Source of the DNA: a virus
IMG/VR virus record: IMGVR_UViG_3300004481_000388
Coordinates: 1 to 64,000 of that record
Length of the DNA stretch: 64,000 bases
Strand: one strand, 5' to 3'
The notes beneath the pieces were generated by a model, which ran no database searches, was not told the DNA's origin, and was given only the letters and a program-made list of their open reading frames with translations. Positions 1,205 through 62,879 of the stretch are shown here, piece after piece. Numbering within the stretch: position 1 is the first letter of the stretch; the number at the start of each line of letters is the position of its first letter. Made by a program: the position numbers and the translations under genes.

Positions 1205-1221
1205 TGTAAACTTAGTTGACG
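1205..1221 (+). repeat. 17-bp phage repeat, type A copy
   Basis: TGTAAACTTAGTTGACG, 17 nt after the stop of 847..1188. Confidence 0.9.
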
Positions 1222-1256
1222 TTTCGTAGGTGTTATGGGTAGGCGTGATGGGTAGG

Positions 1257-1289
1257 AAAGAGAAAAAGCTGGTGAGTTTCCCCACCAGC
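1257..1289 (-). terminator. intrinsic terminator closing the leftward (minus-strand) arm
   Basis: Minus strand reads GCTGGTG-GGGAAACT-CACCAGC followed by TTTTTCTCTTT. It sits at the convergence point with the plus-strand genes. Confidence 0.6.
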
Positions 1290-1371
1290 CCTGAACGACA
1301 AAGAATGATTCTTGATCTGTTTGAACCAATCGTCTAATTGGTAGTATTATAGCACAAGGAGGGAGGGTGGG

Positions 1372-1683
1372 TCAAGGTTTGGCTAGATTATCTGCCTTAG
1401 TATACTTCTCTAAAAACTCCTCACACGTATCACTGTCTGCGAACTCTACACCCATCCACTCACCAGTCTCTCTACGCTTAAACACATACTGCACATACTC
1501 CTTGCTCGTACCTAATACCTTCACGTCTATACGTTTGTTATAGGGGTTTGATGGTTGTATGTACCACTCACTTCCTATAGGTATATATTTGCACGGGGAT
1601 AAATCATCAGCGACTCTATCTGCTATCATAAGTACACCTACCACCAATAACACGACCCCCACTATCATAAACACATATTCCAT
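1372..1683 (-). CDS. small membrane protein, hypothetical
   Basis: Part of ORF 1372..1716. Internal ATG at 1683 follows AAAGGAG. N-terminal TM helix FMIVGVVLLVVGVLMIA. Confidence 0.55.
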   Translation of the reverse strand: MEYVFMIVGVVLLVVGVLMIADRVADDLSPCKYIPIGSEWYIQPSNPYNKRIDVKVLGTSKEYVQYVFKRRETGEWMGVEFADSDTCEEFLEKYTKADNLAKP

Positions 1684-1716
1684 AACTACTCCTTTCTCTC
1701 TCCTACATTCTACCAC

Positions 1717-2076
1717 TCAAAAATCAATATCCTCAACCCCGCCCACTTCCCTACTCTCTACCTTCTCCCTAGGCGGTTTAGGCAACTTCTCCCACATCAC
1801 CCCTTTCCTCTCCAACTGTCTCCAATACTTCTTCACCATCCAATAGACCTCTCGCTTATCCACATCACTCCACGCTTCCCACCTCATCCTCGACATATAC
1901 TGCCCATAGTGCGAGTCCGTTTTATTAAACCCACGCTTATTCTCTTCCGTCGCGCCATCCTCGTCATCCTCGGCTAACAGGCGTAGGGCGTATAGGAGTT
2001 CTTGCCCTATATATTGCTTAGGGATGTAGTGAGTTTTCTCGTTACTCTCGTTCTTGTCTTGTTGTTTACCATTCAT
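1717..2076 (-). CDS. hypothetical protein
   Basis: 119-aa ORF. ATG preceded by TAAGGAG. Packed in the operon. Confidence 0.6.
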   Translation of the reverse strand: MNGKQQDKNESNEKTHYIPKQYIGQELLYALRLLAEDDEDGATEENKRGFNKTDSHYGQYMSRMRWEAWSDVDKREVYWMVKKYWRQLERKGVMWEKLPKPPREKVESREVGGVEDIDF

Positions 2077-2101
2077 CTCAATTCTCCTTAATTCTATAAT
2101 A

Positions 2102-2120
2102 TGCCATACTCAAGTCCATG
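2102..2120 (-). repeat. degenerate 19-bp phage repeat, type B-like
   Basis: Plus strand TGCCATACTCAAGTCCATG compared with TGTCATACTCAAGTTTACA at 21113. Intergenic. Confidence 0.3.
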
Positions 2121-2128
2121 TTCACATT

Positions 2129-2344
2129 CTATTCACACTCTATATGCCACTGAGTCTCCCCTCCTATCTTACATAACTCCTTACCACATATCGAACATAC
2201 AAACTCCTCATATACAGGAAACCCGCAGTGCATTTTTACTCCTATGTTAGTAGGTATGCCACATACTTGACAGTATGTGGTGTAGTTGTATGACTGGCAT
2301 GGTTCGTCTCGTGACTGGCATGGTTCGTCTCGTGAATCATTCAT
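2129..2344 (-). CDS. small Cys-rich (zinc-ribbon-like) protein with an internal 7-aa tandem duplication
   Basis: CQVCG...CSICG pairs. SRDEPCQ occurs twice, encoded by a perfect 2x21-nt repeat at 2291..2332. ATGA overlap with the polymerase stop. Confidence 0.55.
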   Translation of the reverse strand: MNDSRDEPCQSRDEPCQSYNYTTYCQVCGIPTNIGVKMHCGFPVYEEFVCSICGKELCKIGGETQWHIECE

Positions 2345-4376: not shown

Positions 4377-4393
4377 TGTAAACCTAGTTGACG
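4377..4393 (+). repeat. 17-bp phage repeat, type A copy (opposite to local gene orientation)
   Basis: TGTAAACCTAGTTGACG, between the exonuclease gene stop and the 55-aa ORF. Confidence 0.85.
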
Positions 4394-6583: not shown

Positions 6584-6615
6584 AAATTTATCCTTTCCTT
6601 TTGTTGTATGTTATA

Positions 6616-6634
6616 TGTCAGACTCAAGTTTACA
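6616..6634 (-). repeat. 19-bp phage repeat, type B copy
   Basis: Minus strand TGTAAACTTGAGTCTGACA, 32 nt upstream of the dut start. Confidence 0.8.
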
Positions 6635-9384: not shown

Positions 9385-9401
9385 TGTAAACTAGGTTGAC
9401 A
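9385..9401 (+). repeat. 17-bp phage repeat, type A copy (opposite to local gene orientation)
   Basis: TGTAAACTAGGTTGACA, upstream of the helicase start. Confidence 0.85.
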
Positions 9402-10718: not shown

Positions 10719-11954
10719 TTACGCTGCCGTCGCTTCTCCCTTCCCTTTAGGCGTAGGTTTCGCTGCCGCCTTCAACTCCTTCGCCTTCTCCTCCAATTTC
10801 TTCGCCTCCGCCATTCTCTTCTCCCGTGCCTCACGCTCCTTTTTCTTCGCAGCTTCTATCTTCTCCTGCTCCCGTTTTTTCGCCGCTAACTCCTTTTCCT
10901 TCTGCGCTTTCTTCGCCGCTAACTCCTTCTCCTTCTTCGCCTTCTCCTCGGCACGTTTCTTCTCCGCTTCTATCTTCTCCTTCTCTTTCGCCTTCGCCTC
11001 TGCCTCTTTCGCCTTTCTATCCTCCTCTTCCCTCTCCGCTACTGCTTCAGGTTCCACTAGATAGAGGAACGGATATTTCTCAACTATCTCCGCTCTCTCC
11101 TCCTTTGTCCCCACCTTACCCGCTAAGAACTTGAGAAGTGGCCGATACGCCTTACCCGTGTCTGGCGCTTCGATAAGGAAATTCAACTCGCTCTTACTCA
11201 ACGGGCGGAATCCCGGTATACTCTCCACCCCATCTCCTTGCTTCCCACCTTCCTTCGTCCCCGTGCTTCCACTCGTCACTCTATCACTCCCCGCCGCCGC
11301 CGCCTTTTCAAGTAAGTCGTTCAGCTTCTTGTCCTGCTTCTCGTGATTCGGCGTACCGTCCTTATTCTCAGTCGCCTTTACTATGTCAATAGCCTTTGTA
11401 CTACTGATCTTCTCATCCCGAATAGCCTGCACAAGCGTCGAACTACACCCAGTTAACTTGATGTAATCGGCGTACAACTGGCGACTACCAATATTAAACA
11501 CCTCCATCACCCGCTTAGCTGAACCGTGCGGGAGTTTCCCTGTTTCTCCATCACGTAAGAGTTCAAGGTAGTCCCGAATCTCGAACGCTACGTCAATCGG
11601 CGCTACCTGTTCTCTATCCGCATTCTCACTAATCTTCAACTCAGCCATTCCCAAGTAGTCAGTCGGCGGGATGTGGTAAACCTTAGCTACAAGACTGTCC
11701 AACACTCCCTCTGCCGCCTTCGTCCGTCGTCTCCCCGCCGCCACCAGATATGTTCCCTCTTCCGGCCCTGGCACAACGACTATATTTTGTAACTGTCCCT
11801 GCACCCGTAACTTCTCCGCGAGGTCAGCGTTACGTGGCTCTTTCACGCGACGATCCCACAGTGGGTGAGACGGGTCTTCCACAAGGATGAGTTGATCTAG
11901 TGGTATATCCAATATTTCTGTTTGATATTTGCCTGCTAGTTTTTCAATTTCCAT
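10719..11954 (-). CDS. ParB N-terminal-domain protein with a long K/E/A-rich repetitive C-terminal tail
   Basis: Part of ORF 10719..12032. ATG 11954 follows AAGGAAAGG. ParB box-like LVAAGRRRTKAAEG. Tail KEKELAAKKAQKEKELAAKK. Confidence 0.65.
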   Translation of the reverse strand: MEIEKLAGKYQTEILDIPLDQLILVEDPSHPLWDRRVKEPRNADLAEKLRVQGQLQNIVVVPGPEEGTYLVAAGRRRTKAAEGVLDSLVAKVYHIPPTDYLGMAELKISENADREQVAPIDVAFEIRDYLELLRDGETGKLPHGSAKRVMEVFNIGSRQLYADYIKLTGCSSTLVQAIRDEKISSTKAIDIVKATENKDGTPNHEKQDKKLNDLLEKAAAAGSDRVTSGSTGTKEGGKQGDGVESIPGFRPLSKSELNFLIEAPDTGKAYRPLLKFLAGKVGTKEERAEIVEKYPFLYLVEPEAVAEREEEDRKAKEAEAKAKEKEKIEAEKKRAEEKAKKEKELAAKKAQKEKELAAKKREQEKIEAAKKKEREAREKRMAEAKKLEEKAKELKAAAKPTPKGKGEATAA

Positions 11955-12968: not shown

Positions 12969-12985
12969 TGTCAACTAAGTTTACG
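12969..12985 (-). repeat. 17-bp phage repeat, type A copy
   Basis: Minus strand CGTAAACTTAGTTGACA followed by CACTTC. Intergenic. Confidence 0.9.
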
Positions 12986-14633: not shown

Positions 14634-15069
14634 CTCTCTTAACTCCTTTCATATTATCAATGTCATCTAACATAAAACTCCTTGGAGTGGGGAGGATAGG
14701 CGTGGGGAGGATAAGTGGCGGCTTCTGTGCTTTTGATGTTTGAGAAGTGTCAACTAAGTTTACACCTCCCTCTCCCCCCTCTCCACTATCATCATCCTCA
14801 CTAAACTGTATCTCCGCAATATTTCCACTCTCGTCCGTCTCCACAATAGGGTTATTTCCTCTCATCACGCTCAAGAGGGAATGTCCACTTATCTGCGCTG
14901 CTGATAGCCCACCGTACTCACTTCTACACTCCTCGTCGCTAGGGTCTGAGGTATAGTGAACGATGATAATAGGCACGCCCATCTCTCGCATAAGGGAGAG
15001 AGTAGGGTGGGCACCTATACGTGAGTCGTCTAGGGGGATGTCCTCTAGGGTTATTGTTACTTTTGGCAT
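14623..15069 (-). CDS. hypothetical acidic protein; carries an in-frame copy of the 17-bp repeat
   Basis: Part of ORF 14623..15090. ATG 15069 follows GGAGGAG. Contains GGVNLVDTSQ. Confidence 0.55.
   Translation of the reverse strand: MPKVTITLEDIPLDDSRIGAHPTLSLMREMGVPIIIVHYTSDPSDEECRSEYGGLSAAQISGHSLLSVMRGNNPIVETDESGNIAEIQFSEDDDSGEGGEGGVNLVDTSQTSKAQKPPLILPTPILPTPRSFMLDDIDNMKGVKRDGN
14749..14765 (-). repeat. 17-bp phage repeat, type A copy, inside a CDS
   Basis: Minus strand TGTAAACTTAGTTGACA followed by CTTC. Translated as VNLVDT. Confidence 0.9.
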
Positions 15070-15070
15070 A

Positions 15071-16026: not shown

Positions 16027-17561
16027 TACTCTCTCCTGATTATCTGTACTAACTCAGCTTCCGCCTCATGATGGGGGATTCGAGGTTTGAATTCAAACTC
16101 AAGCATATTATCACGATAAGTAGAAGAGTTCCAGTCCTGATTAAAAAATACGCATTTGCTTGGGTAACTACAGCTATGCTCATACTGCGGGAATACTCGG
16201 TCTAAATATTTCTCTAGCTCACTTATACTCTTACCTTTGTATTGGTAAGGCTTAAAGGCATCTATTCCTATATTGGTATAGAGGTTATATTTCTGCCTCG
16301 CCCAACTCCTCAACCTCCCCTGATCCCTCCTGAACGGTGGCGCGTTCACAATAAACTCATCCAGCGCACATCCACCATCCTCCCCCACATCACTCTTCAC
16401 CGCGTTAACGAACGCCTCCACTGTCACGCCCTCAAGTTCCCATATATTCGTCCTCTTATACTTCGGCCCTAACTTCCCACTCGAACCATCTGGCTTCGTA
16501 TAGTTATAGTTCATAGCAAACTCCATCCCCCCATTCGCGTCCCTCTTCACATACGGGCGAATGAGGGAACACGACTGCTCCTTCACCCCTGTCTGATTGT
16601 TCTTCCTCCTCTCCCCCTTTATGAGAAAGATCATCTGCACCCCGGCGATTTGCCAGCACGCGTCCTTGCCTAACTTATTATACCTATCCTTAAACCATCC
16701 AGGGATACTATGATACTCACTATCTTCAGGAATAGTATTTTGCCACTCTCTGAAGTAACACGCACATAACTCTGCCCACCACCTCAATCTCTCCTGCACA
16801 CTACACACCTCACTCATCCCCTGCATGTCACTCTCCCCCGCACTGATCTTCCTCCCCTCCCACTCCGCTGCCGTCTTCCACGATAGTACGAACAAGTCAC
16901 CTGTTAGTCGCTGCTCAAGGAGTCCATCAAGTCTCGCCATCCAACCTATCTCATCCCCTCCTTCCCCACTATGCCACCCCACATCCTTTGGTATCTGCGC
17001 CATCTCCCCTAAACTCTCCAACTCCTCCCTCTCCACCTCCCTCACTTCATATTCCTCCAACAACCACGCCAACCCCTTATCACTCACATAATAGGCCCTC
17101 AGTAGCGCCTCCACTAACGCCATCTGCTCCTTCACCGTGTAATCAACCCAATAATCCCCACCTCTCGCCACCTCACTCCCACCATCCACATCAGGGAGAA
17201 AGGAGTAGTCCTGCCCGTCATTCGCGCCTTGATTAGCGCCTGAAGTGTCAACTAAGTTTACATCCTCTTGTTTGGGGGAGAGTCCTATCTCCTCAAGATC
17301 AAACTGGCTCTTCCCCACTTCCTCAACAAAACGTGCAAGTGCCTTCTCCACACATATACCTATAGGCTCGCCCTTGAGCATGTGTTCCAACCCCTCATGC
17401 ACACACGTACCTACTAACAGAGGCCACGATATGTACTCACTACTTACACCTCCCCCCTCGTGTAAGTAGGAGTAGTAGAACTTTCTAGGACATCTCTGTA
17501 ATGTCTCTGTTCTACTCCTGTCAACAAGTATCTGAAAATCTGTTGGCTTATATCTACTCAT
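16026..17561 (-). CDS. PD-(D/E)XK (RecB/Cas4-like) nuclease with a low-complexity insertion carrying the 17-bp repeat
   Basis: N-terminal CPRKFYYSY and VGTCVHEGLEH, core RLDGL...FVLSWKT, C-terminal Cys pair CSYPSKC. Confidence 0.6.
   Translation of the reverse strand: MSRYKPTDFQILVDRSRTETLQRCPRKFYYSYLHEGGGVSSEYISWPLLVGTCVHEGLEHMLKGEPIGICVEKALARFVEEVGKSQFDLEEIGLSPKQEDVNLVDTSGANQGANDGQDYSFLPDVDGGSEVARGGDYWVDYTVKEQMALVEALLRAYYVSDKGLAWLLEEYEVREVEREELESLGEMAQIPKDVGWHSGEGGDEIGWMARLDGLLEQRLTGDLFVLSWKTAAEWEGRKISAGESDMQGMSEVCSVQERLRWWAELCACYFREWQNTIPEDSEYHSIPGWFKDRYNKLGKDACWQIAGVQMIFLIKGERRKNNQTGVKEQSCSLIRPYVKRDANGGMEFAMNYNYTKPDGSSGKLGPKYKRTNIWELEGVTVEAFVNAVKSDVGEDGGCALDEFIVNAPPFRRDQGRLRSWARQKYNLYTNIGIDAFKPYQYKGKSISELEKYLDRVFPQYEHSCSYPSKCVFFNQDWNSSTYRDNMLEFEFKPRIPHHEAEAELVQIIRRE
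17246..17262 (-). repeat. 17-bp phage repeat, type A copy, inside a CDS
   Basis: Minus strand TGTAAACTTAGTTGACA followed by CTTC. Translated as VNLVDT in the nuclease. Confidence 0.9.
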
Positions 17562-18382: not shown

Positions 18383-18415
18383 TATCAACTAAGTTTACGC
18401 CTTTAAGTTTACGCC
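18383..18415 (-). repeat. 17-bp phage repeat, type A copy, with a duplicated GTAAAC half
   Basis: Plus strand TATCAACTAAGTTTACGCC-TTT-AAGTTTACGCC. Confidence 0.85.
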
Positions 18416-21112: not shown

Positions 21113-21131
21113 TGTCATACTCAAGTTTACA
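21113..21131 (-). repeat. 19-bp phage repeat, type B copy
   Basis: Minus strand TGTAAACTTGAGTATGACA followed by CTTTT. Confidence 0.85.
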
Positions 21132-22332: not shown

Positions 22333-22619
22333 ACTACACCCCCCACACCAACAACAAACAACGCTCCCAACAACACCCTCGCCTTCTCCACCTTCCCCCC
22401 TCTCTCCCGCTCTACCTCCCTCACCTTCTCCCTCCACATCTTCTCCCACTCCCTTTCCTCCTCTATAGCGTCTTTGGTGGTAGAGATGTGGGAAGTGGGT
22501 GAAGTGTCAACTAAGTTTACATTCTCCTCATTTGTGCTTTGTGATTCCCTTTCCTCATTATTAGTGGGATTAGGCGCATTCTTCTTCACGATTCGTACTT
22601 TATTAGATGACTGGTTCAT
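22329..22619 (-). CDS. hypothetical protein with a C-terminal hydrophobic segment; carries an in-frame repeat copy
   Basis: 96-aa ORF. Contains ENVNLVDTSP. C-terminus VLLGALFVVGVGGVV. Confidence 0.5.
   Translation of the reverse strand: MNQSSNKVRIVKKNAPNPTNNEERESQSTNEENVNLVDTSPTSHISTTKDAIEEEREWEKMWREKVREVERERGGKVEKARVLLGALFVVGVGGVV
22505..22521 (-). repeat. 17-bp phage repeat, type A copy, inside a CDS
   Basis: Minus strand TGTAAACTTAGTTGACA followed by CTTC. Confidence 0.9.
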
Positions 22620-24118: not shown

Positions 24119-24127
24119 GGTTGATAT

Positions 24128-24816: not shown

Positions 24817-24833
24817 TGTCAACTAAGTTTACT
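24817..24833 (-). repeat. 17-bp phage repeat, type A copy
   Basis: Minus strand AGTAAACTTAGTTGACA followed by CATTTC. Its TAA is the stop codon of ORF 24829..24978. Confidence 0.9.
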
Positions 24834-25841: not shown

Positions 25842-25858
25842 TGTAAACTTAGTTGACA
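25842..25858 (+). repeat. 17-bp phage repeat, type A copy (plus orientation at the head of the leftward arm)
   Basis: TGTAAACTTAGTTGACA followed by GTTTAC. Confidence 0.9.
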
Positions 25859-28178: not shown

Positions 28179-28195
28179 CGTCAACTTAGTTGGCT
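28179..28195 (+). repeat. degenerate 17-bp phage repeat
   Basis: CGTCAACTTAGTTGGCT. Confidence 0.5.
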
Positions 28196-28802: not shown

Positions 28803-28831
28803 TTGACTTTACAGTTTAAAAGGCGTAAAAT
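28803..28831 (+). promoter_or_regulatory. sigma70-type promoter for the rightward arm
   Basis: TTGACT (28803-28808), 17-nt spacer, TAAAAT (28826-28831). Confidence 0.6.
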
Positions 28832-28905: not shown

Positions 28906-28922
28906 TGTAAACTTAGTTGACA
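28906..28922 (+). repeat. 17-bp phage repeat, type A copy
   Basis: TGTAAACTTAGTTGACA followed by CATTTC, 30 nt before ATG 28953. Confidence 0.9.
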
Positions 28923-31336: not shown

Positions 31337-31641
31337 TTAGCACGCTACTAGGCACGCTACTAGATATGTACTACGCATCTCGTCGTGCTTATTGTTTTCT
31401 CACGCACAACCCTCAAGGCGCGTGGGTGCGCGTCCCAGGGAGAGTTCATGTAGAGAGGGTAGAAGATGGTGTTATGGCTAAGGATATACGCTATACGTGC
31501 AATATATGTGACTGTGAACACACTATACGAATAACGTGGAAGTGTGATACATTGGCGTGGGCTGGGAGTGAGACTATGACGTGGGAGGGGGTGGTGGTGG
31601 AGGGAGGTGTAAACTTAGTTGACACTTCTAATAAACGATAA
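31327..31641 (+). CDS. hypothetical Cys-rich protein ending in an in-frame repeat copy
   Basis: 104-aa ORF. CNICDC. C-terminus GGVNLVDTSNKR. Confidence 0.55.
   Translation: MQIISTLLGTLLDMYYASRRAYCFLTHNPQGAWVRVPGRVHVERVEDGVMAKDIRYTCNICDCEHTIRITWKCDTLAWAGSETMTWEGVVVEGGVNLVDTSNKR
31608..31624 (+). repeat. 17-bp phage repeat, type A copy
   Basis: TGTAAACTTAGTTGACA followed by CTTC. Confidence 0.9.
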
Positions 31642-33711: not shown

Positions 33712-33723
33712 ACTTAGTTGACA
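33707..33723 (+). repeat. 17-bp phage repeat, type A copy
   Basis: CGTAAACTTAGTTGACA. Contains the upstream stop codon and the TTG used as the ORF-track start of the terminase gene. Confidence 0.9.
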
Positions 33724-37052: not shown

Positions 37053-37069
37053 TGTAAACTTAGTTGACA
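37053..37069 (+). repeat. 17-bp phage repeat, type A copy
   Basis: TGTAAACTTAGTTGACA followed by TAT, 40 nt before ATG 37110. Confidence 0.9.
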
Positions 37070-39367: not shown

Positions 39368-39386
39368 TGTACCACCTTAGTTGACA
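39368..39386 (+). repeat. 17-bp phage repeat variant with a divergent left half
   Basis: TGTACCACCTTAGTTGACA. Its TTGACA is followed at 18 nt by TCTAAT. Confidence 0.7.
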
Positions 39387-39417
39387 CATCCCCACTCCCT
39401 ATGCTCTAATCCCCCAC

Positions 39418-39858: not shown

Positions 39859-40164
39859 ATGTTTCCTTTTTATACTACAACGAACACGTTTAATCGTCCT
39901 ACTCTTGGATCATGTACGCTGGAAGCGCGAGTTTCTAATGACTCGATTTTCTTACACATCAACGATCAATTGCCAACCCCCTTATACCCATTCCTTAGCG
40001 AACCTCCTAAAGTAAACTTAGTTGACGTTTGGGAGAAGCTATATGTTGAGGGGAAGCAAGAAAGGAAAAGGCTGGAATATGCCCAAGTTATCGGTAAAGC
40101 GTGCTTCTCTACTCTCACAGGTAAAAGAGAAGGCAGGAGCACGGGCGAAGAAGGAAGACGTTGA
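39859..40164 (+). CDS. hypothetical protein reading through a repeat copy and overlapping the scaffold gene
   Basis: Part of ORF 39856..40164. Contains KVNLVDVWE. Its 3' part overlaps 40022..41254 in another frame. Confidence 0.35.
   Translation: MFPFYTTTNTFNRPTLGSCTLEARVSNDSIFLHINDQLPTPLYPFLSEPPKVNLVDVWEKLYVEGKQERKRLEYAQVIGKACFSTLTGKREGRSTGEEGRR
40011..40027 (+). repeat. 17-bp phage repeat, type A copy
   Basis: AGTAAACTTAGTTGACG. Confidence 0.85.
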
Positions 40165-41276: not shown

Positions 41277-41292
41277 CGTAAAACTGTTGACA
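41277..41292 (+). repeat. phage repeat, degenerate type A
   Basis: CGTAAAACTGTTGACA. Its TTGACA is followed at 18 nt by TCTAAT. Confidence 0.6.
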
Positions 41293-41364
41293 CCCCCCTC
41301 TTCCCTATGGTCTAATCCCACTTTCACGAGCTTCCCCCCACCTTTGCCGGTCAACGGGGGAATT

Positions 41365-41528: not shown

Positions 41529-41547
41529 CGTAAACCTGAGTATGACA
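41529..41547 (+). repeat. 19-bp phage repeat, type B copy
   Basis: CGTAAACCTGAGTATGACA followed by CTTCC, 49 nt before ATG 41597. Confidence 0.85.
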
Positions 41548-42762: not shown

Positions 42763-42793
42763 AACGTAAACTTAAACGTAAACTTAGTTGGCA
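42763..42793 (+). repeat. 17-bp phage repeat, type A variant, with a duplicated left half
   Basis: AACGTAAACTTA-AACGTAAACTTA-GTTGGCA. Confidence 0.85.
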
Positions 42794-44973: not shown

Positions 44974-44990
44974 CGTAAACTTAGTTGACA
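44974..44990 (+). repeat. 17-bp phage repeat, type A copy
   Basis: CGTAAACTTAGTTGACA, 16 nt before ATG 45007. Confidence 0.9.
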
Positions 44991-45716: not shown

Positions 45717-48700
45717 ATGAAACGTCAACTTAGTTTACACTTCCCCCTATTCCTTATACTTCTCATCTCTTCGCTTTTACTCTCTACTCCCTCCTTAGCA
45801 CAGTCAGTGGTTAAGTACCAAGACTACGCGTCTAAGGGTGGGGTGAGTGCAGTGGTGCAAGGAACCCCCTCCACCAACAAATTCCCGCAAGTGTTTCCAG
45901 GGTGCACTGTAACCGTATATCTAACAGGCACAACGACACTAGCTACGATATACACGAACTCGTCTCTAACCCCTAAAAGTAACCCTTTCACGGCTGATAG
46001 TGAGGGAAGAGTAGAGTTTTATATAGCGCCGGGTAGTTATGATATACGCTATAGTGGGACAGGGATAACTACACCATTTACTAGATCGGCGGTTAATATT
46101 GGGTCAGGCAGCGGAGGAGGGGGCAGTGGTGTAACTACTACACTATATAATCCTCTTCTATATACTTGCGTAGGAGATGGTGTTACAGATGATCGTAACT
46201 GTCTTAACACCCTTGTTAATACGACTATACAACCAGCAGGAGGAAGGCTACTCCTCTCTGCTACATTTCTCATAAACTCTAATCTCAGCATTCCAGCAAA
46301 CGTTCACATAGATGGGCAATCCGTGGGATACATTAAGGTAGCTACGGGCAAGACGCTGACTGTGCTGGGCAGTATGCCACGCTTCCCCTTGCAATATTTC
46401 ACGAACTGCGGGCCAAGTCTCGGCACCGTTGATTTCACTGGTAATTACAAAATCGTCGAAGTGTTTCCCGAATGGTTCGGCGCAGATGCGAGCCTGGCTG
46501 ACAGTGCAGGCTACACCACGAACTATCGGGCGCTTTATGCGGCGATTCATTCGGCGTTTGGTAATCGGGCATCCATATCTGCCGCGACTAATGCCGCGAC
46601 GGTGCAGTTCACCTACACGGGGGCGAAAATCTCTACGGGTGATACGATCCTGATTTCCGGGGCAACGGGGAATTGGGATAATGGTGGTAATACGATTAAC
46701 GGGAGTTGGACGGCTACTGCGACGGGGGATCACACCTTTACAATTCCGAGAGATTCCACCACGTTTGGCCCGCTCACGGGCACGGTCGTCGCACACACCA
46801 GAAAGAACGGCGTCAATACGCAGTTCAACCGCACGCTGGTGCTAAACGGCGAATATTCGATTAACGATGAAATCCCGCTCTATCACGTCCTGGGGTTCTC
46901 AATGCAGGGGGGGAACCAACTCAATCACGGCATCCGGCAGCGCGTCAATGACAAGCGGATATTCGCCGGGGAATCGGTTGCCTACGGAACTTTTAAAAAT
47001 CTGCGGTTCTCAACTTCAGGTACGTTATCTGGTGGGGGGTTACTAGAGATCAACTACGGCGCAACCCAGGGCGACGATCTCAGGCCACAGAATATCACTT
47101 TTCAGGATTGCGTCTTTGATGGGAACTCCTCGGCGCTTGTAGGGGTTTGGATTGCGAAGAGTGGAGGCGGCAGTCAGGGCGACAATATCCGCTTTCTCTA
47201 TTGCTATGGGCGTTCCTTCACGCACTCAGCTATATTACTAGGCGGAAATGGCATTGCCCCCCTGACAGGCTCCTCCTATGCAACCAATGCGATTCAAGTC
47301 ATTGTCGAAGGTGGAGATTATCAAAACAACCCTAAGTACGCACACGCCGGGTATGGCGGTAGCTTCATCATATCCAACGTTTCATACGAGAATCAGGTAC
47401 TAGGGTCGAATGGACGCCCAACGCAGACTGGGGCAGATGTTCACTGCGAAGGGAACTCCTTCCGTTGCAAACTCCTCAATTCCCGCTCTGAATCCTTGCG
47501 CGTCGTGGAGGGCGAGGTGGACATCGAAAATCTCCTCATGTCCTCTAACGGATGGTTGCAAAACTGGTACGACTCAAACGCTGCTACCACGCTCACTGGC
47601 ACCGAAGCCTACGTTGGGCAACTGGTCAGCGGCTCGAAATCGGGCGGGGATGGGAAAGTCTATCGCGTCACGAGAGCCGATAACGTCAACACCGGATACC
47701 GCACGATGACCTCGATCACATTGCCTAATGTCATTGGGGATTCCACTGGTACCTATACAGTCAACGAACTGGCGGGTTTAAAGATTTATGCCCAATTCCA
47801 GAGCAACCTTTTCGTCGCCTTCGCGGGCACAGTCGTATCCAACACCGCGACGACGATCACCGTAGACACCACAGGCAGTGCGTACACGCTCTCGGATTAC
47901 ACTGCCGGGAACACGAAATATATTGTCTATTACCAGCTACCTATCTGGGGCGGCGTAGCGAAGACCACAGCAACAGGGGGGAGTGGCACAGGCAGCGGCG
48001 CGACGATTACGAAAACGGGCGCAGGGTGGACGGTGAACGCCTTCACGGGCTGGCGCGTGTCTCTCCTGGGCAATATTAGTAGTCAAAAGGGAGCCTTACA
48101 ATGGGGCATCATCGCCTCCAATACTGCCGACACGATTACCCTTGATGCAACAGGGTGGCGCTGCGACTATCCGCTCGACTATCTCCATCCTGATTATCAA
48201 ATTGTTGCGGCGGATAACACCTCTGAGTTCTGCGTTGAGCCGAACTGGGGCACGACGACGACCAGCGGCACGCTGATTGACTTTGCCGCGTATGACTACT
48301 ATGCCATTGATGGGGCGAGTCCTGGCACGAATTATCATGTCGGCTACATAAAGAACTCGAACGTGGGCAGTGGGGCGATGGTGCGTACCCTGAGTACAGA
48401 CATTGACGGCTTACAGGTGTCTCGTGCGGATTGGAACCCTGCGGCGGGTCTTTGGGATGACGGATTCCATAGGCGTCATTGGAAGGGCATTGAGGTCATT
48501 CGAGAACGTGGGTTTCAAAAGCCTCTTCCCTGGGTGCCAACGCGCAACGGGTCAACCTCTCCGCTTGGCCCTACCCCGAAAGTCGTTACGTTTGGCACCG
48601 ACTTTATCACCTGGAACCGGGGACTCTACGGAGGTGGTTCAACGCTCACCGATCTAGGGATTGGCCCCGGTGATGGAGCCAACGCGAATAGCACTCTCAA

Positions 48701-49587: not shown

Positions 49588-49604
49588 CGTAAACTTAGTT
49601 GACA
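49588..49604 (+). repeat. 17-bp phage repeat, type A copy
   Basis: CGTAAACTTAGTTGACA followed by TAT, 20 nt before ATG 49625. Confidence 0.9.
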
Positions 49605-54740: not shown

Positions 54741-54757
54741 TGTAAACTAGGTTGACA
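54741..54757 (+). repeat. 17-bp phage repeat, type A copy
   Basis: TGTAAACTAGGTTGACA, only 3 nt before ATG 54761 with no SD in between. Confidence 0.9.
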
Positions 54758-54760: not shown

Positions 54761-57700
54761 ATGGCACAGTTTAACGATACTCCTCCTCAAAGTTACCGTT
54801 TTGGTGTTGGTGGAATGCAAGTCTCCCGTGCTCTCGAATTACTAGAGGAGCATAAGATAGCTTACGGGCGTAATATTCGTAACTACAAAACTGGGGAGAT
54901 ACGCCCCCGTCCAGGGTTAGGCACTTCTCTTTTCAACGGTGCATTAGGAACCACTACCATCCATACGCTACGACGGTTTAATGATCCTACGAGTAACGCC
55001 TACTTTTACATCATCGGCGCGGGAGATAAACTCTATACGCTAAATGAATCTGCTATCCCAGGTGCAGAGTTAGCTAGTGGGTTTAGTGGCTTGCCCTTAC
55101 AACTAGCTTTCATACGCCCCTATCGTAGTGCGTATAACTGGGCGTACATCTCCGACTCTGCTCGTATGGTAAAGATTGGCCCAGCACAGCAGCTACAAAA
55201 CTGGTCTATCCAACCCCTCACTACCCCCCTGAGCGTTCTCTTGGGCACGTTAAACTTCAAAACCATCTCTGATTTTGACAGTACGGGGTCATGGGCGAAT
55301 ACAGGTACAGCGGGGGCGCTAAGCGTGTCTACTCGCATCTCTTTCACCATCCCAGCCTCGTCTATCCTATACGACGTGGGCTCGACAGGGTGGGCGAATA
55401 TAATCCCCACAACCCTAGATGATAACTTCCAACCCGGTGTCTCACTCGTTTATAACAGCGGAGGAGGTACAGAAGAGCGTGCACTTATCTCTCAGGTGTT
55501 TAAGGCTAGTGGCTCGACTACCGTAAAAGCGATACGATATGACTCAGGATCAACGGGACGATGTATTATCCAACTCGAAAACCCGTATGACATGGTTCTC
55601 GAAAAGGACGGTACGGTTAAGCTCACTACCTCAGGAGGCGCGTCTAGTGAGTTCTGCCGGATTATAGACGTAATCTCATCTCCCATAAATAAACCAGCGA
55701 TAATTGTGTCAACCACGTTGACGCATACTACCTCATCTACGTGTGAGGCTGTACGCTCCTATCGCACATACCTACAAAACACGCACGCGGCGGGGGAAAC
55801 AGTAGCAGGGAGTTATATGAGGTCTACAGTGAGTAGTGGGACTGGGTATATTACGCTCACTACCTCTCTCGACCTCTCAACCTCTTCTACGCCCGCTGTC
55901 TCCCCCTTTTGTGACCGTGACACAATACACTTATCTATTAGGGTAAGTAACCCTGCGAATATTACTGAAATCATTCTACAGTTAGACGTTGATAGGGCGA
56001 CTAATGACTTCACGAAGAACTACTATCAATATACGATTCAGCCAGCCGCGTTAACAACAAGCGCGACGGCACTAACGGCAGCACAGGTGGATTTACAAAG
56101 AGAGCAGATACTTGTAGGGTATAGGGTACCTGATAACTACTCATCCTATTACGATTACGATAGGAGTTATGGGTATGATGGGAATAATTACTACTCAGGG
56201 TCGCCTGGGCAAGTAGACTACTCTCTTCGCTCCCCCCAAGGCGCGTATCAGGAACCAGTCTACGAATACGGCACGATCTCTAACCCATCAGGTGTGAGTG
56301 ACGCGGCTACGGGAAGTAGTCAGTGGACGGAACTTGTAGTGCGCCTATCGGACTTCAAGCGTATTGGTAGTGACACGTCTCGTGGGTGGAAGGATGTAGC
56401 AGCGTTACAGGTTAAGGTGGTGTGTACTGCGAGTGTAGACGTGGATATAGACTCGTGGTATATCGGGGGAACGGGGCAACTCAATAACGCGAATATAGGG
56501 CAACCTATTAACTACGTAGCGACGTGCTATAACGACCTCACTGGCGATGAGTCCCTACCCTGCCCACCACTTCGTAGCGGGTTGAAGGTGAATCTCGCTA
56601 CTGCCACCCTCACTATTACACAATCACTAGACACACAAGTAACGAGGTATAAGTTCTATCGTATTGGAGGGCTACTTAACCAATTTACATACATAGGGAG
56701 CGTACCTCATAAGAACGCATCTTCCACCACTACGTTCATAGATAACTTCCCTGATGAGGACGTAGTAGCTAACCCCCCACTGTCTCGTGACAATTACCCC
56801 GTCTTTCCCCAACTAGACATTCCTCGTAGTGGCACAGCTACCATCGTAGGTAACATCCTCACTAGAACAGGAGGCACAGACACTTTCAACACTTCATGGG
56901 CGGCAGGCTCACGTATTACCATTACAGACGAATCAACTGGCCTTTCATTCGACACCAACCTATACTCCTCCCCTATCTCCACTACTCTCGTGGAACTAGA
57001 AGAGAGCTTACCATTCACATCTGCTACGTCTCTGAAATGGAAAATAAATGAGCCTGTCTTACTTGGGCAACCTGTGCGTGCGATCTTTGGCCCCTACACC
57101 TCAGGGCTAGACCTCCCTGTTATATTCGGCCTAGGGTGTATGTATCAGGCAGGTACGCTGTTTTGGACGAACAAGGGAATGCCTGGAAGCGCGTCTCTCA
57201 ATAACCAAGTAGAGGTAACTACGCCCGAAGAACCACTAATAGGTGGCTTTTTGTATGATACACAAGCATTCGTCTTCTCCACCGAACGACTCTTTCATAT
57301 CACGCAAGTTCCTACCGAGGATGGGTCGCTGATGTTCCAGCCGAACGAGGTGGCTAATTCTAAGGGGCTTATCTCCCCTTCATGTGTATCGGTAGGTCAA
57401 GTAGCAGTGTTCGTAGGGAAGGATGGAGTTTACGTAACTACCGGGGGGCAACCTCGTAGTATCACAGACCGTGATCTCTACACCATATTCCCACATGACT
57501 CACAAGCGGGTGTTGCTAGTGGCCCACAGAATGAACTCCTCCCACTAGACCTCTCTCTAGCCTCATCGTTCCATCTCACTCATCATAACGACTTCTTCTA
57601 CCTATCGTACATAAACACGTCTGCCCAGCGCCGCATCCTCGTGTTCGACGTATCCAAAATAATCAGTGGGCTGGCTACGACGGATGATGTAGGGGGATGG

Positions 57701-59229: not shown

Positions 59230-59246
59230 TGTAAACTTAGTTGACA
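59230..59246 (+). repeat. 17-bp phage repeat, type A copy
   Basis: TGTAAACTTAGTTGACA followed by TAT, 10 nt before ATG 59257 with no SD. Confidence 0.9.
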
Positions 59247-60540: not shown

Positions 60541-60542
60541 TC

Positions 60543-61256
60543 ATGCCAGTTTTACCATTCATTCCAGCAATCGTAGGAGGAGTTACTTCCGTCGTTAGTG
60601 CGGTGAAGAACTCGAACGCACAGAAGAAGCAACTCGCACTACAGCAACAGGCAGTTGATAAGCAGAACCAAGTGATAGATCAACAGATGGAAGGCTCTAA
60701 GTTAGCATACGACTACGCTAAAGAGTTCTTTCCTAAGATCAACGAATACCTCTCCCCTGTAGGTAATCGCGCTAAACGTATCTTCACTGGGGACGCTACA
60801 GCGATTAACGAAGAGATACGCCCTGAAATGGACAACTATCTCAATTCGGTGAGGCAACAGGAACAATATCTCAACGCTTACTCCTCTCGTGGCACTACAG
60901 GCACGAGACTTATTGATTCGTTCTTTCGTAAAAGTGCTGATGTAGCAAATATGCGCTCACAAGCACGTTCAAACGCCGGGAACACGCTACAGAACTTAGG
61001 CTCTATCTATGCCAACATCGCTAGTGCTAACCTTGCCAACGCTAGTGGTTCATCGGCTAGTGCTAGTAACGCCTTAACCGCGCAACAGTCTATTGCAGCG
61101 GGGCAACTAAACTCGCTCAGGAGTGAGGGGCAAGGAATTGGTAGGTCTATAGGCCAGCTACTAGGCTTGTTTAACTGGCGAGCGAAATCCCTAGGGGACT
61201 TCTTCGGTACGAGTGGGAGTAGTGGACGGCCAAGAGTGGTGGGTAGTGGTGGGTAG
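60543..61256 (+). CDS. internal virion/ejection-type protein (candidate)
   Basis: 237 aa. Hydrophobic N-terminus MPVLPFIPAIVGGVTSVVSAV, then Q/N/S/A-rich. Confidence 0.5.
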   Translation: MPVLPFIPAIVGGVTSVVSAVKNSNAQKKQLALQQQAVDKQNQVIDQQMEGSKLAYDYAKEFFPKINEYLSPVGNRAKRIFTGDATAINEEIRPEMDNYLNSVRQQEQYLNAYSSRGTTGTRLIDSFFRKSADVANMRSQARSNAGNTLQNLGSIYANIASANLANASGSSASASNALTAQQSIAAGQLNSLRSEGQGIGRSIGQLLGLFNWRAKSLGDFFGTSGSSGRPRVVGSGG

Positions 61257-61301
61257 TGGTGGTGGTATAGATAATGGTGGGGTGTATGTCGGGGAGTAAA
61301 A

Positions 61302-61320
61302 CGTAAACTTGAGTATGACA
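61302..61320 (+). repeat. 19-bp phage repeat, type B copy
   Basis: CGTAAACTTGAGTATGACA followed by CTTTT, 20 nt before ATG 61341. Confidence 0.85.
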
Positions 61321-61340
61321 CTTTTGTAAGGTAGGTAGAG

Positions 61341-61550
61341 ATGGAACAAGTAAGAGAGAAGATAGATTTGAGTAATAAGGGTAGAGAGGACTGGACAAGT
61401 GAGGAGAAAGCGACTGTCTCCTCGTGGAGTATATCTAAGTGTAGTCATTGTAGCTGTCCCTATCTACGAGTTAACTATATGGGGCCAACCTACCTCAGAT
61501 ACGCGTGTAATAATTGTCACAACCTTACTGTGTTGGTAGGTAACGAATAG
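61341..61550 (+). CDS. small zinc-ribbon protein
   Basis: 69 aa, CSHCSC...CNNCHN. Confidence 0.5.
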   Translation: MEQVREKIDLSNKGREDWTSEEKATVSSWSISKCSHCSCPYLRVNYMGPTYLRYACNNCHNLTVLVGNE

Positions 61551-61564
61551 AATAGGAGAAATTT

Positions 61565-62854
61565 ATGGGCATATTAGGTGGTATTGCGGAAGGAATACTT
61601 GAACGCCCTCTACAAGAACGATCCCAGCAGGACGCGTTTAACCTCCAAAAGCGTCAGGCTAGGTATAAGCACGCGTTTGACACCTTAGACGATATACGCG
61701 AGGAGGATTTACCCCTTGCTATACAGGCACTAGATGAGCTAACGCAAGCTAAAACGCCTGAGAAGGAAGACGCGGCGTATGGGAGATTCGTCTCTCTCCT
61801 TCGTACTGAGGATTATGGGAGGGAGCAACAAACGGGCGAGCATAACGCAGCGGTGGGGGGACAAGTGGGTGCGAGTAGTCGTCCTCGTATTGCTATGGAT
61901 GAGGGTATGAACGCCGAACTCTCTAACCCCCAGGGACTCATAACGCGTCCTACTAATGACTACGCACAGGGGGGGATACGGTTGAAGAGTAGTGAGGGAG
62001 AGATGGGAAGGAAGCTGAAGTTTTACGAGGCACAGCAGGAGGCGCAGACTCGTCGTGCGTTATTAGTAGAGCAAGAACGTCGCCGTACCACTCTCGACAA
62101 ACTCCAAGCACAGTCTGAGCAGTTAGGGGTTCAAGGCGTGAAGGAAGGGGTAGATGATAACGGGAATCAGGTGATTACGTACTTCGATAAGAAGACAGGG
62201 CAGCATCATTCCTTTACTAACAACGGTGTCACTCCTGCCCAGAAAATGATTAGTGATAACCGCTTGGCGTATCAGGAGGAACGGGATACTGAGTTACTTA
62301 GAGAGCATGCAAGACAGTTTAACGCCAATCTTAATCTCAAGAACCGCGAACTCGCAGTAGACACGAGGTTCAAGGAAGCGCAGATGGAGGATATGAAACA
62401 GAAACTCCTTCTCCAACAAACAGGCGCTAATCGTGACACTACTGAACGTGAGATAGACTCTCTCTTTGACCAGTACAAACTAGCCAACTCCACCATTCTT
62501 GACGAGATTAAGAGTACATTTGAGCAGGAAAAGGCGGTACAAGCGAATCTTATCTTGCCAGACGCGCAGAAGATTCAACAACTCCAAGCTCTACAGACAA
62601 GGCGTGAGGAGTTGGAGAAGAAGAGGGTGGAGATATGGAGACGGGTGGAACAAGAGGCTGATAAGTTGCGCAAGGGTAAGGCAGAAACGAAGAAGAAGGT
62701 GGGGCAGATAACCAGCACTCCTACTCCCAAGGCGTCCTCCTCGTCTACAGGGGGGAACAAGGCCACGACTCCGCAACTCGCTACCCCACAGCTTAACAAG
62801 GGGGAGTATCGTAATATCTTCAAACGCCTCGACAAGAGCATACCTAAAAAGTAA
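61565..62854 (+). CDS. coiled-coil internal virion protein (candidate)
   Basis: 429 aa, Q/E/K/R-rich helical. Confidence 0.55.
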   Translation: MGILGGIAEGILERPLQERSQQDAFNLQKRQARYKHAFDTLDDIREEDLPLAIQALDELTQAKTPEKEDAAYGRFVSLLRTEDYGREQQTGEHNAAVGGQVGASSRPRIAMDEGMNAELSNPQGLITRPTNDYAQGGIRLKSSEGEMGRKLKFYEAQQEAQTRRALLVEQERRRTTLDKLQAQSEQLGVQGVKEGVDDNGNQVITYFDKKTGQHHSFTNNGVTPAQKMISDNRLAYQEERDTELLREHARQFNANLNLKNRELAVDTRFKEAQMEDMKQKLLLQQTGANRDTTEREIDSLFDQYKLANSTILDEIKSTFEQEKAVQANLILPDAQKIQQLQALQTRREELEKKRVEIWRRVEQEADKLRKGKAETKKKVGQITSTPTPKASSSSTGGNKATTPQLATPQLNKGEYRNIFKRLDKSIPKK

Positions 62855-62862
62855 GCCTAGTC

Positions 62863-62879
62863 TGTAAACTAAGTTGACA
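62863..62879 (+). repeat. 17-bp phage repeat, type A copy
   Basis: TGTAAACTAAGTTGACA followed by CTTC, 42 nt before ATG 62922. Confidence 0.9.

Follow-up and report, generated by a model that had tools for sequence, protein, structure and literature searches.

Dispersed, lineage-specific dyads at gene junctions of an uncultivated podovirus-like phage: a possible multi-site operator system

Operator-like repeats dispersed over a whole genome are known in only a few actinobacteriophage groups. Cluster O mycobacteriophages such as Corndog carry 34 copies of a 17-bp palindrome of 7-3-7 architecture (5'-TGTTCGGNNNCCGAACA); for this symmetric kind of repeat, sites for a dimeric protein have been proposed (PMC4351075). 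In Cluster A phages, more than 20 stoperators located in short intergenic spaces and promoters serve as repressor sites; they are asymmetric, 13 bp long and bound by a monomer, and they block elongation (PMC9283540). Here we describe a quasi-palindromic repeat found about once per 2 kb in a stretch of 64,000 nucleotides of viral DNA (IMG/VR record IMGVR_UViG_3300004481_000388, positions 1 to 64,000; hereafter the window). By analogy, the Corndog-type repeat appears to be its closest match and the stoperators its closest functional model. With a probability of about 0.4, the architecture of the repeat and its fate in related phages suggest that it is a dispersed multi-site operator of one phage-encoded DNA-binding protein acting as a two-fold symmetric dimer.

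The repeat is real and non-random. The exact 16-mer GTAAACTTAGTTGACA is present in 13 copies and was absent from 100 dinucleotide shuffles, and 41 strand-hits with at most 3 mismatches were counted where 0.76 are expected. The pattern GT[AC]AAC-N3-GTT[GT]AC with no more than one mismatch, here called type A, retrieves 27 sites, and an 18-nt variant, type B (GTAAACYTGAGTMTGACA), retrieves 4 against 0.22 expected; three more sites are degenerate (Table 1). A first-pass annotation, made from the letters of this DNA, had noted about 32 copies, 27 of them of type A and 13 sharing the exact 16-mer; the repeat holds against the shuffles and these two counts were recovered. Four of its five type B copies (6616, 21113, 41529 and 61302) were retained, the one at 2102 being only a degenerate relative. 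Its placement of the copies almost exclusively in short gaps holds for most of them: 20 of the 27 type A sites are intergenic or at gene edges while non-coding DNA makes up 10.8% of the window (p = 2e-14), but several are intragenic, those at 14748, 17246, 31608 and 36509 encoding VNLVD(TS) or VNQVD in frame. The distance of intergenic copies to the start codon is not fixed and ranges from 3 to 137 nt. As annotated, copies 33709, 24829 and 52405 supply the stop codon of the upstream gene and the GTAAAC half is duplicated at 18383, 42763 and 52403. Scans of IMG/VR, GTDB genomes and JGI metagenomes with the exact 16-mer returned, among the matches listed, single chance copies, one unrelated Romboutsia record with two copies, and no signal of a host or prophage; a literature search with the motif string found nothing.

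The anatomy of the element was drawn from an alignment of 25 copies with their flanks. Conservation extends from position -3 to +20, positions 1-6 and 10-13 are invariant, and the central triplet is variable (TTA in 19 copies, other centres in the rest). T7 and A9 are complementary around the centre base, and the flanks mirror each other, positions -3 to -1 being A, W, R and positions +17 to +19 Y, W, T. The element is an 8-1-8 dyad, TGT[A/C]AACT-N-AGTT[G/T]ACA (consensus form TGT[A]AACT-T-AGTT[G]ACA), of about 23-25 bp with symmetric A/T-rich flanks. The one-sided 3' extension, (C)CTTC or TAT, that had first been attached to a 17-mer is the mirror of the 5' flank A-W-R, so that the element is longer than a 17-mer with a tail.

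Symmetry is broken only at position 3/13 and at the centre base. Half-sites are either A-type (TGTAAAC) or C-type (TGTCAAC), and 25 sites combine one of each as against 2 with identical halves. The half type follows the gene strand in a ratio of 20:5 for type A (p = 0.004) and of 24:5 when type B is included, and a T at the centre is found on the sense strand in 18 cases against 2. The earlier observation that orientation tracks the genes is borne out in the minus-strand arm, where 9 of 12 copies are on the minus strand, but the right arm is not entirely plus: copy 30198(-) is antisense in the primase gene and the orientation of 45723 is ambiguous. Purine loading was considered as the cause of the bias and rejected, as it predicts an independent choice at positions 3 and 13, in conflict with the 25 hetero to 2 homo sites, and a sense-strand TAA rather than TTA, whereas the centre count of 18:2 goes the other way.

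Relatives of the phage were found through homologs of the large terminase (TerL); a single-protein TerL scan of IMG/VR gave no match. One of them, L035, a 62.6-kb Logan contig whose DNA is 72-92% identical to the window, keeps 13 sites at the same junctions. Between the two, the 17-nt core is 92% identical and the 20-nt flanks 68-72%, and in diverged intergenic DNA, the early region included, the flanks seem unrelated while the core persists. The sites are thus kept by selection in this relative, which supports an operator. L036, with a TerL 60% identical to that of the window, contains no copy of the window motif and has instead the dyad AGT[GC]AGT-C-ACT[TT]AC, in 8 copies against 0.05 strand-matches expected. 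This other dyad precedes orthologs of the motif-bearing genes of the window, the shared positions being the first right-arm gene, the post-primase region, TerL, portal, the next gene, the capsid gene and the gene after capsid. The conservation at syntenic junctions that the first-pass annotation had asked about is therefore seen in L035 as conservation of the motif itself, but in L036 another dyad occupies the junctions.

A scan of IMG/VR with a TerL alignment, followed by a k-mer screen of the family loci, allowed us to identify three further lineages, each with its own dispersed dyad. These are TTGCGGA-A-TCCGCAA in L315 (9 sites in 22 kb against 0.08 strand-matches expected), CCGCAAA-A-TTTGCGG in L291, and AGTC[C]AAC|GTT[A]GACT in L324 and L331 (10 sites in 20 kb against 0 expected, with 16 and 13 exact 14-mers across contigs of 59.5 kb and 59.7 kb). 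Many of the copies in relatives lie directly 5' of a ribosome-binding site and start codon. None of the relatives' dyads contains TTGACA, and in two relatives with dispersed dyads there is no strand polarity, orientation being unrelated to gene strand. More than 30 other family loci in the k-mer screen had no such repeat.

The operator interpretation is drawn from the symmetry that extends into flanks and centre, from selection in L035 and from the replacement of the dyad by different ones at shared junctions of relatives; operator-like contexts of some sites, the lack of RNA polymerase and sigma-factor genes among the ORFs and the mycobacteriophage precedents also count in its favour. The symmetric dimer would dock on double-stranded DNA at about 30 sites, distributed over the gene junctions of the two arms, and the bound protein would act genome-wide on the host RNA polymerase, as a repressor where a site coincides with a -35 hexamer and as a stoperator-like roadblock, silencer or timing device at sites inside long transcription units. 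We infer the binding of a protein to the sites, as well as the identity of the binder and the direction of the effect on transcription; candidates are an early winged helix-turn-helix (wHTH) protein (28953-29510) and a ParB-like protein (10719-11954). The operator set of a global regulator, one of three roles suggested at first, is the best supported of the three, although neither of these proteins, both named at that time, could be tied to the dyad sites.

Several observations weigh against an operator bound by a symmetric dimer. Symmetric double substitutions at 21259 in L035 (TATAAAC..GTTGATA) and at 21710 in L315 suit base pairing equally well, and so do the few single changes observed in the stems of the window and of L035, all of which allow a wobble pair in the sense strand. 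The fixed mismatch at 3/13 is not predicted by a simple homodimer, and a symmetric dimer accounts neither for the pairing of unlike halves (25 vs 2) nor for the tracking of gene orientation by half type (24:5) and centre base (18:2). Type B sites have 2 extra bp between GTAAAC and TGACA, which is awkward for a rigid dimer. The sites also resemble a promoter set in their density, in lying just 5' of leaders with ribosome-binding sites and in sharing the orientation of the genes. The match of the wHTH protein is weak and its AlphaFold2 single-sequence model reached a pLDDT of 36.5. Finally, Pfam and PHROGs scans of the 78 open reading frames (ORFs) called in the window revealed no integrase and no recognisable immunity repressor, and lysogenic silencing is unsupported.

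The geometry of the window repeat is close to that of Corndog, with a length of 17 bp, 7-bp arms that are near-invariant, a variable A/T-rich centre of 3 bp and TGT...ACA ends. More than 30 copies occur in a genome of roughly similar size, mostly in intergenic positions with a minority in genes; in both cases they are not tied to sigma-70-type (SigA) promoters, no integrase is found and a ParB-domain protein is encoded. The sequence is nevertheless other than that of Corndog, which is a Mycobacterium siphovirus, whereas the window belongs to a podovirus-like phage without Cluster O homology. In Corndog the arms show perfect symmetry and hardly any orientation signal, in contrast to the asymmetric position observed here (24:5 with gene strand), and here relatives have different dyads at the same junctions. 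Like stoperators, the sites number more than 20, lie in short intergenic spaces, are oriented with transcription and differ in sequence by lineage; stoperators also act on the host RNA polymerase, as proposed for the dyad. However, a stoperator is a 13-bp asymmetric site for a monomer with two DNA-binding domains and not a dyad of 17-25 bp, and Cluster A phages have a temperate lifestyle and encode an immunity repressor together with an integrase or parABS, while only a ParB-like protein and no lysogeny genes were found in the window. The element combines the Corndog geometry with a stoperator-like polarity and lacks one defining feature of each, having neither the orientation-free symmetry of Corndog nor the monomeric asymmetric site of a temperate phage.

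Two other types of systems are more distant analogies. KorB with OB in RK2 and ParB or Noc with parS or the Noc-binding site (NBS) use palindromic sites dispersed over the replicon, some adjoining -35 regions and others far from promoters. The window likewise encodes a ParB-family protein and has palindromes of similar length at comparable density; it differs by the absence of a detectable ParA, by a sequence unrelated to parS, NBS or OB, by a hetero-dyad and strand bias not seen there, and by relatives having analogous repeats without detectable ParB. PeSL cassettes of T4-type phages are composites of a sigma-70 early promoter and a stem-loop (PMC2839356, PMC4122927). They resemble the dyads as dozens of short conserved intergenic repeats just 5' of genes that are linked to gene gain and loss, but the dyads have no -10 and no stable stem-loop. 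The start-associated sequences of Cluster K stand at a fixed short distance from the start codon, unlike the dyads (PMC4351075).

As far as the sequences tell, duplex DNA read by a two-fold symmetric protein is favoured over an RNA hairpin. Symmetry reaches the innermost bases, which could not pair in a hairpin, in 5 of 5 lineages with such repeats, and the chance of this occurring in all five by coincidence is roughly estimated at 2e-4. For the sense-strand RNA hairpin, predicted energies lie between 0 and -3.2 kcal/mol and z-scores between -0.7 and +0.8, which is no better than shuffled sequences; type B RNA does not fold, and an Rfam scan at the gathering threshold gave no match. Duplex DNA bound by a symmetric dimer is preferred because of this innermost symmetry together with the weakness of the hairpin. 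An intrinsic terminator or a repetitive extragenic palindromic (REP)-like hairpin was rejected, the hairpin being weak, no T-run following the copies and none of these figuring among terminator predictions.

We consider it unlikely, for the same reasons, that the repeat acts at the RNA level as a small hairpin with an internal mismatch in 5' leaders, bound by a phage RNA-binding protein or nuclease and serving in processing, stabilisation or translational control of many cistrons. Such a role would fit copies located 3-65 nt 5' of start codons within apparent long polycistronic units and the sense-strand orientation of half type (24:5) and centre base (18:2). It would also fit positions 3/13, which are never complementary (A.G or, in swapped copies, C.T), stem changes compatible with wobble at 18383 (G.T), 42777 (T.G) and 28179 (T.G), the pairing kept by the double changes of L035 and L315, and a variable type B position (A or C) where a bulge would fall. 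Besides marginal stability and symmetry that continues into the would-be loop and the flanks, it has to contend with a sequence that is itself invariant, and not merely its pairing, and with the conserved antisense copy 30198 and the copy 28179 in control DNA that does not look transcribed.

The promoter-like features of the sites could also reflect a phage-specific promoter, at which a sigma-like or recruiting phage factor would bring the host RNA polymerase to initiate at or just after the 3' edge of the repeat; this would imply about 30 middle or late promoters. In T4-type phages, promoter density is comparable to the 1 per 2 kb seen here. The co-orientation with genes (24:5) points the same way, as do a perfect sense-strand TTGACA within the element, A/C-rich leaders with a ribosome-binding site after the copies, and the position of copies close to the downstream start in long intergenic regions (40011, 15-51 nt; 41530, 49 nt; 28906, 30 nt). 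Yet no -10 is conserved at any fixed spacing after the 25 full copies, and the bases 3' of the dyad are weakly conserved; the first-pass annotation had already remarked that most copies have no -10 at 16-19 nt after TTGACA, which we find as well. Two-fold symmetry that includes the flanks is likewise unexpected of a promoter. Copies 1205(+) and 25842(+) are followed by terminator hairpins instead of genes, and TTGACA is missing from the dyads of relatives, in two of which orientation is unrelated to gene strand. Copy 54741 stands 3 nt 5' of an ATG (54761) whose position is backed by alignment with Tunturi gp31, and since the TAGG of its centre is the only Shine-Dalgarno-like sequence, the mRNA must begin upstream of this copy.

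A promoter of this kind would moreover need a factor that was not detected. The scans of the 78 ORFs detected neither an RNA polymerase nor a sigma factor, with no match to PF00940 or to a PHROG polymerase, and every ORF of at least 400 aa was assigned to non-polymerase or structural functions. Tunturi_1 (63 kb), a cultured Tunturiibacter phage that is only distantly related, has a layout matching that of the window and no polymerase in its annotation, and by comparison with it no more than a few kb of the genome would lie outside the window, which leaves no room for a polymerase gene. A fragment of the SLT-domain protein used as a query toward the rest of the genome had no homolog, and the sole match of the protein at 195-788 was one 1.2-kb contig. 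The promoter for a phage or phage-redirected polymerase, suggested at first, is accordingly weakened and appears improbable.

More specific promoter models were rejected. For a T7/SP6-type single-subunit polymerase there is no polymerase gene, and the element is mirror-symmetric with no asymmetric consensus of about 23 bp through the start site; TTAGTTGACACT agrees at 11 of 12 positions with the SP6 promoter TTAGGTGACACT, but this was not retained as a mechanism. A sigma-70 promoter is contradicted for full copies by the absence of a -10 hexamer at 16-19 bp, and a reading of GTAAAC as the -35 of an extracytoplasmic function (ECF)-sigma-like factor by the absence of anything conserved 16-18 bp downstream. 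A class II activator site would require transcription to start within the coding sequence at 8 copies whose ATG is less than 30 nt away, and an N4-type DNA-hairpin promoter lacks a virion polymerase and conflicts with symmetry into the would-be loop.

Ordinary promoters are present in these phages and some of them meet the dyads. Sigma-70-like promoter matches in the window are at chance level overall. Site 28906 lies between an early promoter at 28803 and the first right-arm gene, which encodes the helix-turn-helix protein. Two near-identical promoters, TTGACA-N18-TCTAATCCC, were found after the portal gene (39381-39410) and before the capsid gene (41287-41316); in both the TTGACA of the motif serves as -35 and the left dyad halves are degenerate. 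The first is conserved in four phages (window, L035, L036 and L037), and the -35 of this post-portal promoter (TTGACA-18-TCTAAT) belongs to a full dyad in L035. A dyad on a -35 is the classic operator-overlapping-promoter arrangement. Within the window, the -10 (TCTAAT at 18 bp) follows only the degenerate copies 39370 and 41277. TTGACA-N17/18-TATAAT-type promoters exist in L037 and L038, in the structural-gene region, as well as in L036, and the host polymerase is therefore of the ordinary sigma-70 type. Two strong terminator hairpins were predicted, at 1265-1292 (convergent junction, left end) and 25895-25918 (bidirectional, after a 281-aa gene unit); they delimit transcription blocks, and a dyad copy lies 37-44 nt from each.

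If the dyads are operators, the protein encoded at 28953-29510 is a candidate binder. In L035, where the motif is shared, the ortholog has 88% identity and an unchanged helix-turn-helix region; in L036, where the motif is another one, identity is 31% within a local match of 64 residues (query residues 41-102) and the putative recognition helix is different. These comparisons are consistent with this protein being the binder without being diagnostic. The second candidate, 10719-11954, aligns with chromosomal ParB/Noc over the N-terminal domain and the helix-turn-helix (4umk, E = 8e-6; 6t1f; 7ol9), its GRRRTKA fits the GxxRxxA box, and from this similarity it is a real ParB/Noc relative. No homolog of it was detected (phmmer, E <= 10) in c12926, c35111, L315, L291 and L036 as far as these were fetched; c12926 and c35111 are near-complete and have 13-16 exact dyad copies, and coverage of L035 and L036 is partial. 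Genes for XRE-type helix-turn-helix proteins occur in distant relatives bearing dyads (L324, 7954-8259; L331, about 6895-7431; L291, 2560-2811). In L324 and L331, which share a dyad, this gene ends at a dyad copy and the two proteins are 51% identical over 72 aligned residues. Different regulator families may serve the repeats in different lineages, since two near-complete dyad-bearing relatives have an XRE-type gene and no detectable ParB. Further small proteins of the window that might bind DNA are 25278-25790 and the zinc-ribbon proteins 31327-31641 and 32556-32987.

The ParB-like protein also invites a reading in which the dyads, like parS, load a phage ParB/Noc-like CTPase at about 30 sites from which it would spread, and so compact, position, protect or silence the genome of the phage, in the manner of KorB on RK2 and Noc on the chromosome. 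ParB-family sites are palindromes of 13-16 bp, and RK2 has 12 KorB sites in 60 kb. Besides the ParB/Noc alignment and the GRRRTKA box, this reading can appeal to Corndog, the closest analogous repeat, which likewise encodes a ParB-domain protein, although the Corndog authors deemed that protein unlikely to serve genome stability (PMC4351075). We regard such loading as quite unlikely, given that no ParB homolog was found in the fetched family loci, the dyad-rich c12926 and c35111 among them, that no ParA was found among the 78 ORFs, and that an orientation bias and hetero-dyad composition are unexpected for parS sites.

There is little to recommend the repeats as cassette boundaries or recombination signals, that is, as substrates for gene swap or insertion or as products of a mobile process. 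The three gene-scale indels that distinguish the window from L035 are all located next to a copy (24817, 28906 and 44974): an Acb2-like gene and another are inserted in L035 at 28906, and the window has an extra gene at 44974. Half-site duplications (18383, 42763, 52403), in-frame intragenic copies, the repeats flanking some Corndog indels (PMC4351075) and the PeSL precedent (PMC2839356) go in the same direction. However, three of three indels would fall at copy-bearing junctions by chance in about 14% of cases (an estimate with about 13 of 25 junctions), an exact lineage-specific dyad under selection is not needed for recombination alone, and both parts that define PeSL, the -10 and the stable stem-loop, are absent from the element.

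Hardly credible is a polar replication or packaging signal, the weakest of the roles first suggested, read on the lagging-strand template or by the packaging motor with the flip marking fork direction: orientation does flip at about 25.8-28.9 kb, where the GC skew minimum and iteron-like repeats lie, and spacing is about 2 kb, but copy 1205(+) follows the local plus-strand genes despite the expected leftward fork, a strong junction preference is unneeded, dyad symmetry does not suit a strand-specific reader, and two dyad-bearing relatives lack strand polarity.

Table 1. Dyad sites of the window, candidate binding proteins and other located features
Feature	Position	Strand	Context
Type A dyad TGTAAACTTAGTTGACG	1205..1221	+	after last plus-strand gene of left block; faces terminator 1265-1292, no gene downstream
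Degenerate type B relative TGTGAACATGGACTTGAGTATGGCA	2102..2126	-	upstream of ATG 2076
Type A dyad	4377..4393	+	27-nt gap in split DNA polymerase region; half-sites anti-oriented to genes
Type B site GTAAACTTGAGTCTGACA	6616..6633	-	32 nt 5' of dUTPase start 6583
Type A dyad, centre TAG	9385..9401	+	30 nt 5' of helicase start; anti-oriented
Type A dyad	12969..12985	-	intergenic, 96 nt 5' of start 12872
Type A dyad	14748..14764	-	3' part of ORF 14623-15090, in frame VNLVD; 114 nt 5' of start 14633
Type A dyad	17246..17262	-	within PD-(D/E)XK nuclease ORF 16026-17561, in frame VNLVD
Type A dyad, GTTGATA variant	18383..18399	-	extra GTAAAC half 14 nt upstream; 27 nt 5' of start 18355
Type B site	21113..21130	-	22 nt 5' of start 21090
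Type A dyad	22505..22521	-	intergenic, 55 nt 5' of start 22449
Type A dyad	24817..24833	-	stop codon of ORF 24829-24978; abuts 460-bp indel vs L035
Type A dyad with third half GTTTAC	25842..25858	+	between bidirectional terminator 25895-25918 and gene start 25790; anti-oriented
Variant dyad CGTCAACTTAGTTGGCT, both halves C-type	28179..28195		divergent control region; conserved in L035
Type A dyad	28906..28922	+	30 nt 5' of first right-arm gene, ATG 28953
Type A dyad	30198..30214	-	antisense within primase gene; kept in L035
Type A dyad	31608..31624	+	last codons of ORF 31327-31641 (VNLVD); 65 nt 5' of ATG 31690
Type A dyad	33707..33723	+	stop codon of ORF 32959-33711; 42 nt 5' of large terminase ATG 33766
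Type A dyad, centre CAA	36509..36525	+	hypervariable linker of ORF 36327-37046; absent from L035
Type A dyad	37053..37069	+	40 nt 5' of portal ATG 37110
Half-degenerate dyad	39370..39410	+	TTGACA 39381-39386 is -35 of conserved TTGACA-18-TCTAAT; full dyad in L035
Type A dyad	40011..40027	+	15 nt 5' of ATG 40043
Degenerate dyad CGTAAAACTGTTGACA	41277..41316	+	TTGACA is -35 of second TTGACA-18-TCTAAT promoter, 5' of major capsid gene
Type B site	41530..41547	+	49 nt 5' of major capsid ATG 41597; identical in L035
Type A dyad, GTTGGCA variant	42777..42793	+	extra GTAAAC half 12 nt upstream; 34 nt 5' of ATG 42828
Type A dyad	44974..44990	+	16 nt 5' of ATG 45007; L035 has TATAAAC..GTTGATA and lacks next gene
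Dyad with swapped half types	45723..45739	-	first codons of tailspike gene; centre and flanks read plus
Type A dyad	49588..49604	+	1 nt 3' of stop codon; 20 nt 5' of ATG 49625
Type A dyad, centre CAA	52409..52425	+	duplicated GTAAAC half gives stop 52405-52407; 35 nt 5' of ATG 52461
Type A dyad, centre TAG	54741..54757	+	3 nt 5' of homology-supported ATG 54761; occupies ribosome-binding region
Weak dyad, both halves C-type	55707..55723		within 1350-aa virion protein gene; possible chance match
Type A dyad	59230..59246	+	10 nt 5' of ATG 59257
Type B site	61303..61320	+	20 nt 5' of ATG 61341
Type A dyad, centre TAA	62863..62879	+	42 nt 5' of ATG 62922 (SLT-domain internal virion protein)
Sigma-70-type early promoter TTGACT-17-TAAAAT	28803..28831	+	dyad 28906 about 65 nt 3' of predicted start
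Candidate binder, 185 aa, weak GntR/YvoA-like helix-turn-helix	28953..29510	+	E = 0.0027, below Pfam cutoff
Candidate binder, ParB/Noc-like, GxxRxxA box, helix-turn-helix, K/E-rich tail	10719..11954	-	aligns with 4umk, 6t1f, 7ol9
Split family-A DNA polymerase	2341-4203 (polymerase part), 4400-5563 (UDG-like/exonuclease part)	-	Pfam/PHROGs scans
Pif1/Dda-like helicase with LAGLIDADG intein	6646-9354	-	Pfam Intein_splicing, LAGLIDADG_3, Hom_end

The greater part of a genome is represented by the window, that of a novel tailed phage which is uncultivated and podovirus-like. When 20 kb were compared with GenBank phages by megablast, no nucleotide match was returned, and protein matches fall only in phage groups other than Cluster O. 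Two divergent arms can be distinguished, the left one on the minus strand with replication genes and the right one on the plus strand. The two parts of the DNA polymerase (2341-4203 and 4400-5563) are kept apart by a 55-aa ORF and by dyad copy 4377, which fills a 27-nt gap, and inteins such as that of the helicase are also present in several TerL homologs of the family (P0012, P0073, P0080 and P0093). The left arm further includes genes for the ParB-like protein, a Sak4-like protein, HNH endonucleases, a PD-(D/E)XK nuclease and a dUTPase. The right arm opens with the small helix-turn-helix protein, followed by the primase (29597-31336) and then by the large terminase, portal, capsid, tailspike, SU10-type adaptor, a 1350-aa virion protein, a weak T7 gp14-like match and the SLT-domain protein.

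The divergent non-coding region between the arms coincides with the minimum of the cumulative GC skew and carries iteron-like arrays (27750-27815 and 28235-28590), which comprise three copies of CCAACTGTC(C/A)G in one case and many GGTACAG in the other. Replication may start in this region, a candidate origin. An inverted repeat of 39 nt with 90% complementarity (26203-26241 and 27289-27327) brackets a 281-aa gene (26331-27176) with no family match, with a strand skew well below that of its neighbours and with homologs in L035 and L036; this unit could be a mobile or invertible module. Farther right, the predicted leader between the early promoter 28803 and dyad 28906 contains a long inverted repeat (28840-28904, TCGTCGCTCCCTGA ... 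TCAGGGAGCGACGA) with a loop of about 37 nt. At the dyad preceding the first right-arm gene of L035, two extra genes follow directly (4642-5173), one of which has a Pfam match to the Acb2/Tad1 hairpin family of anti-defence sponge proteins.

Some leaders resemble each other beyond the dyads. Those of the dUTPase (6568-6612) and of ORF 45329-45628 (45300-45344), on opposite strands, are 80% identical over a stretch spanning the ribosome-binding site and the first codons (MAQGN). Several leaders 3' of dyad copies have in common ATAACACGTAACTAA followed by GGAAAGGA, and TCTAATCCC is also found 6 nt after dyad 37053. Three consecutive tail-fibre or tailspike-like proteins (45717-49586, 49625-51361 and 51361-52038) have signal-peptide-like N-termini, two of them Sec-like (LLL...AQS/AQG) and the third, MLRREFIKSAAAG, Tat-like, which is unusual for virion proteins. 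Other repeats are a perfect 30-nt tandem duplication (22782-22841) inside ORF 22680-23234, repeating AGLRSCSVKQ, a 57-nt direct repeat of 91% identity (24065-24121 and 24499-24555), and repeats within 14275-15767 common to the paralogous HNH endonuclease genes 14148-14633 and 15307-16026.

Our findings extend an arrangement previously associated with a few actinobacteriophage groups to an unrelated uncultivated family, in which at least five lineages have their own dyad, two of them at matching junctions. The replacement of lineage-specific dyads at conserved junctions and the directional asymmetry of a single position in the window genome are both new. Matching changes in half-sites to changes in recognition helices could reveal the binder. 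These phages seem to be devoid of their own polymerase, sigma factor and lysogeny genes. It is a tentative and on the whole unlikely proposal that a family of podovirus-like phages of about 60-70 kb pairs a fast-evolving small DNA-binding protein with some 30 cognate hetero-dyad sites before ribosome-binding sites, forming a switch on host RNA polymerase in a lytic phage, with the single-position asymmetry giving direction. Such a genome-wide switch might possibly take the form of a promoter class with neither -10 nor -35, nucleated by a dimeric recruiter, or possibly that of a polar roadblock setting the timing of every operon in a lytic phage. If the sites were indeed polar roadblocks or unusual promoters, they would show how a lytic phage programs the RNA polymerase of its host and would provide orthogonal pairs of proteins and operators.

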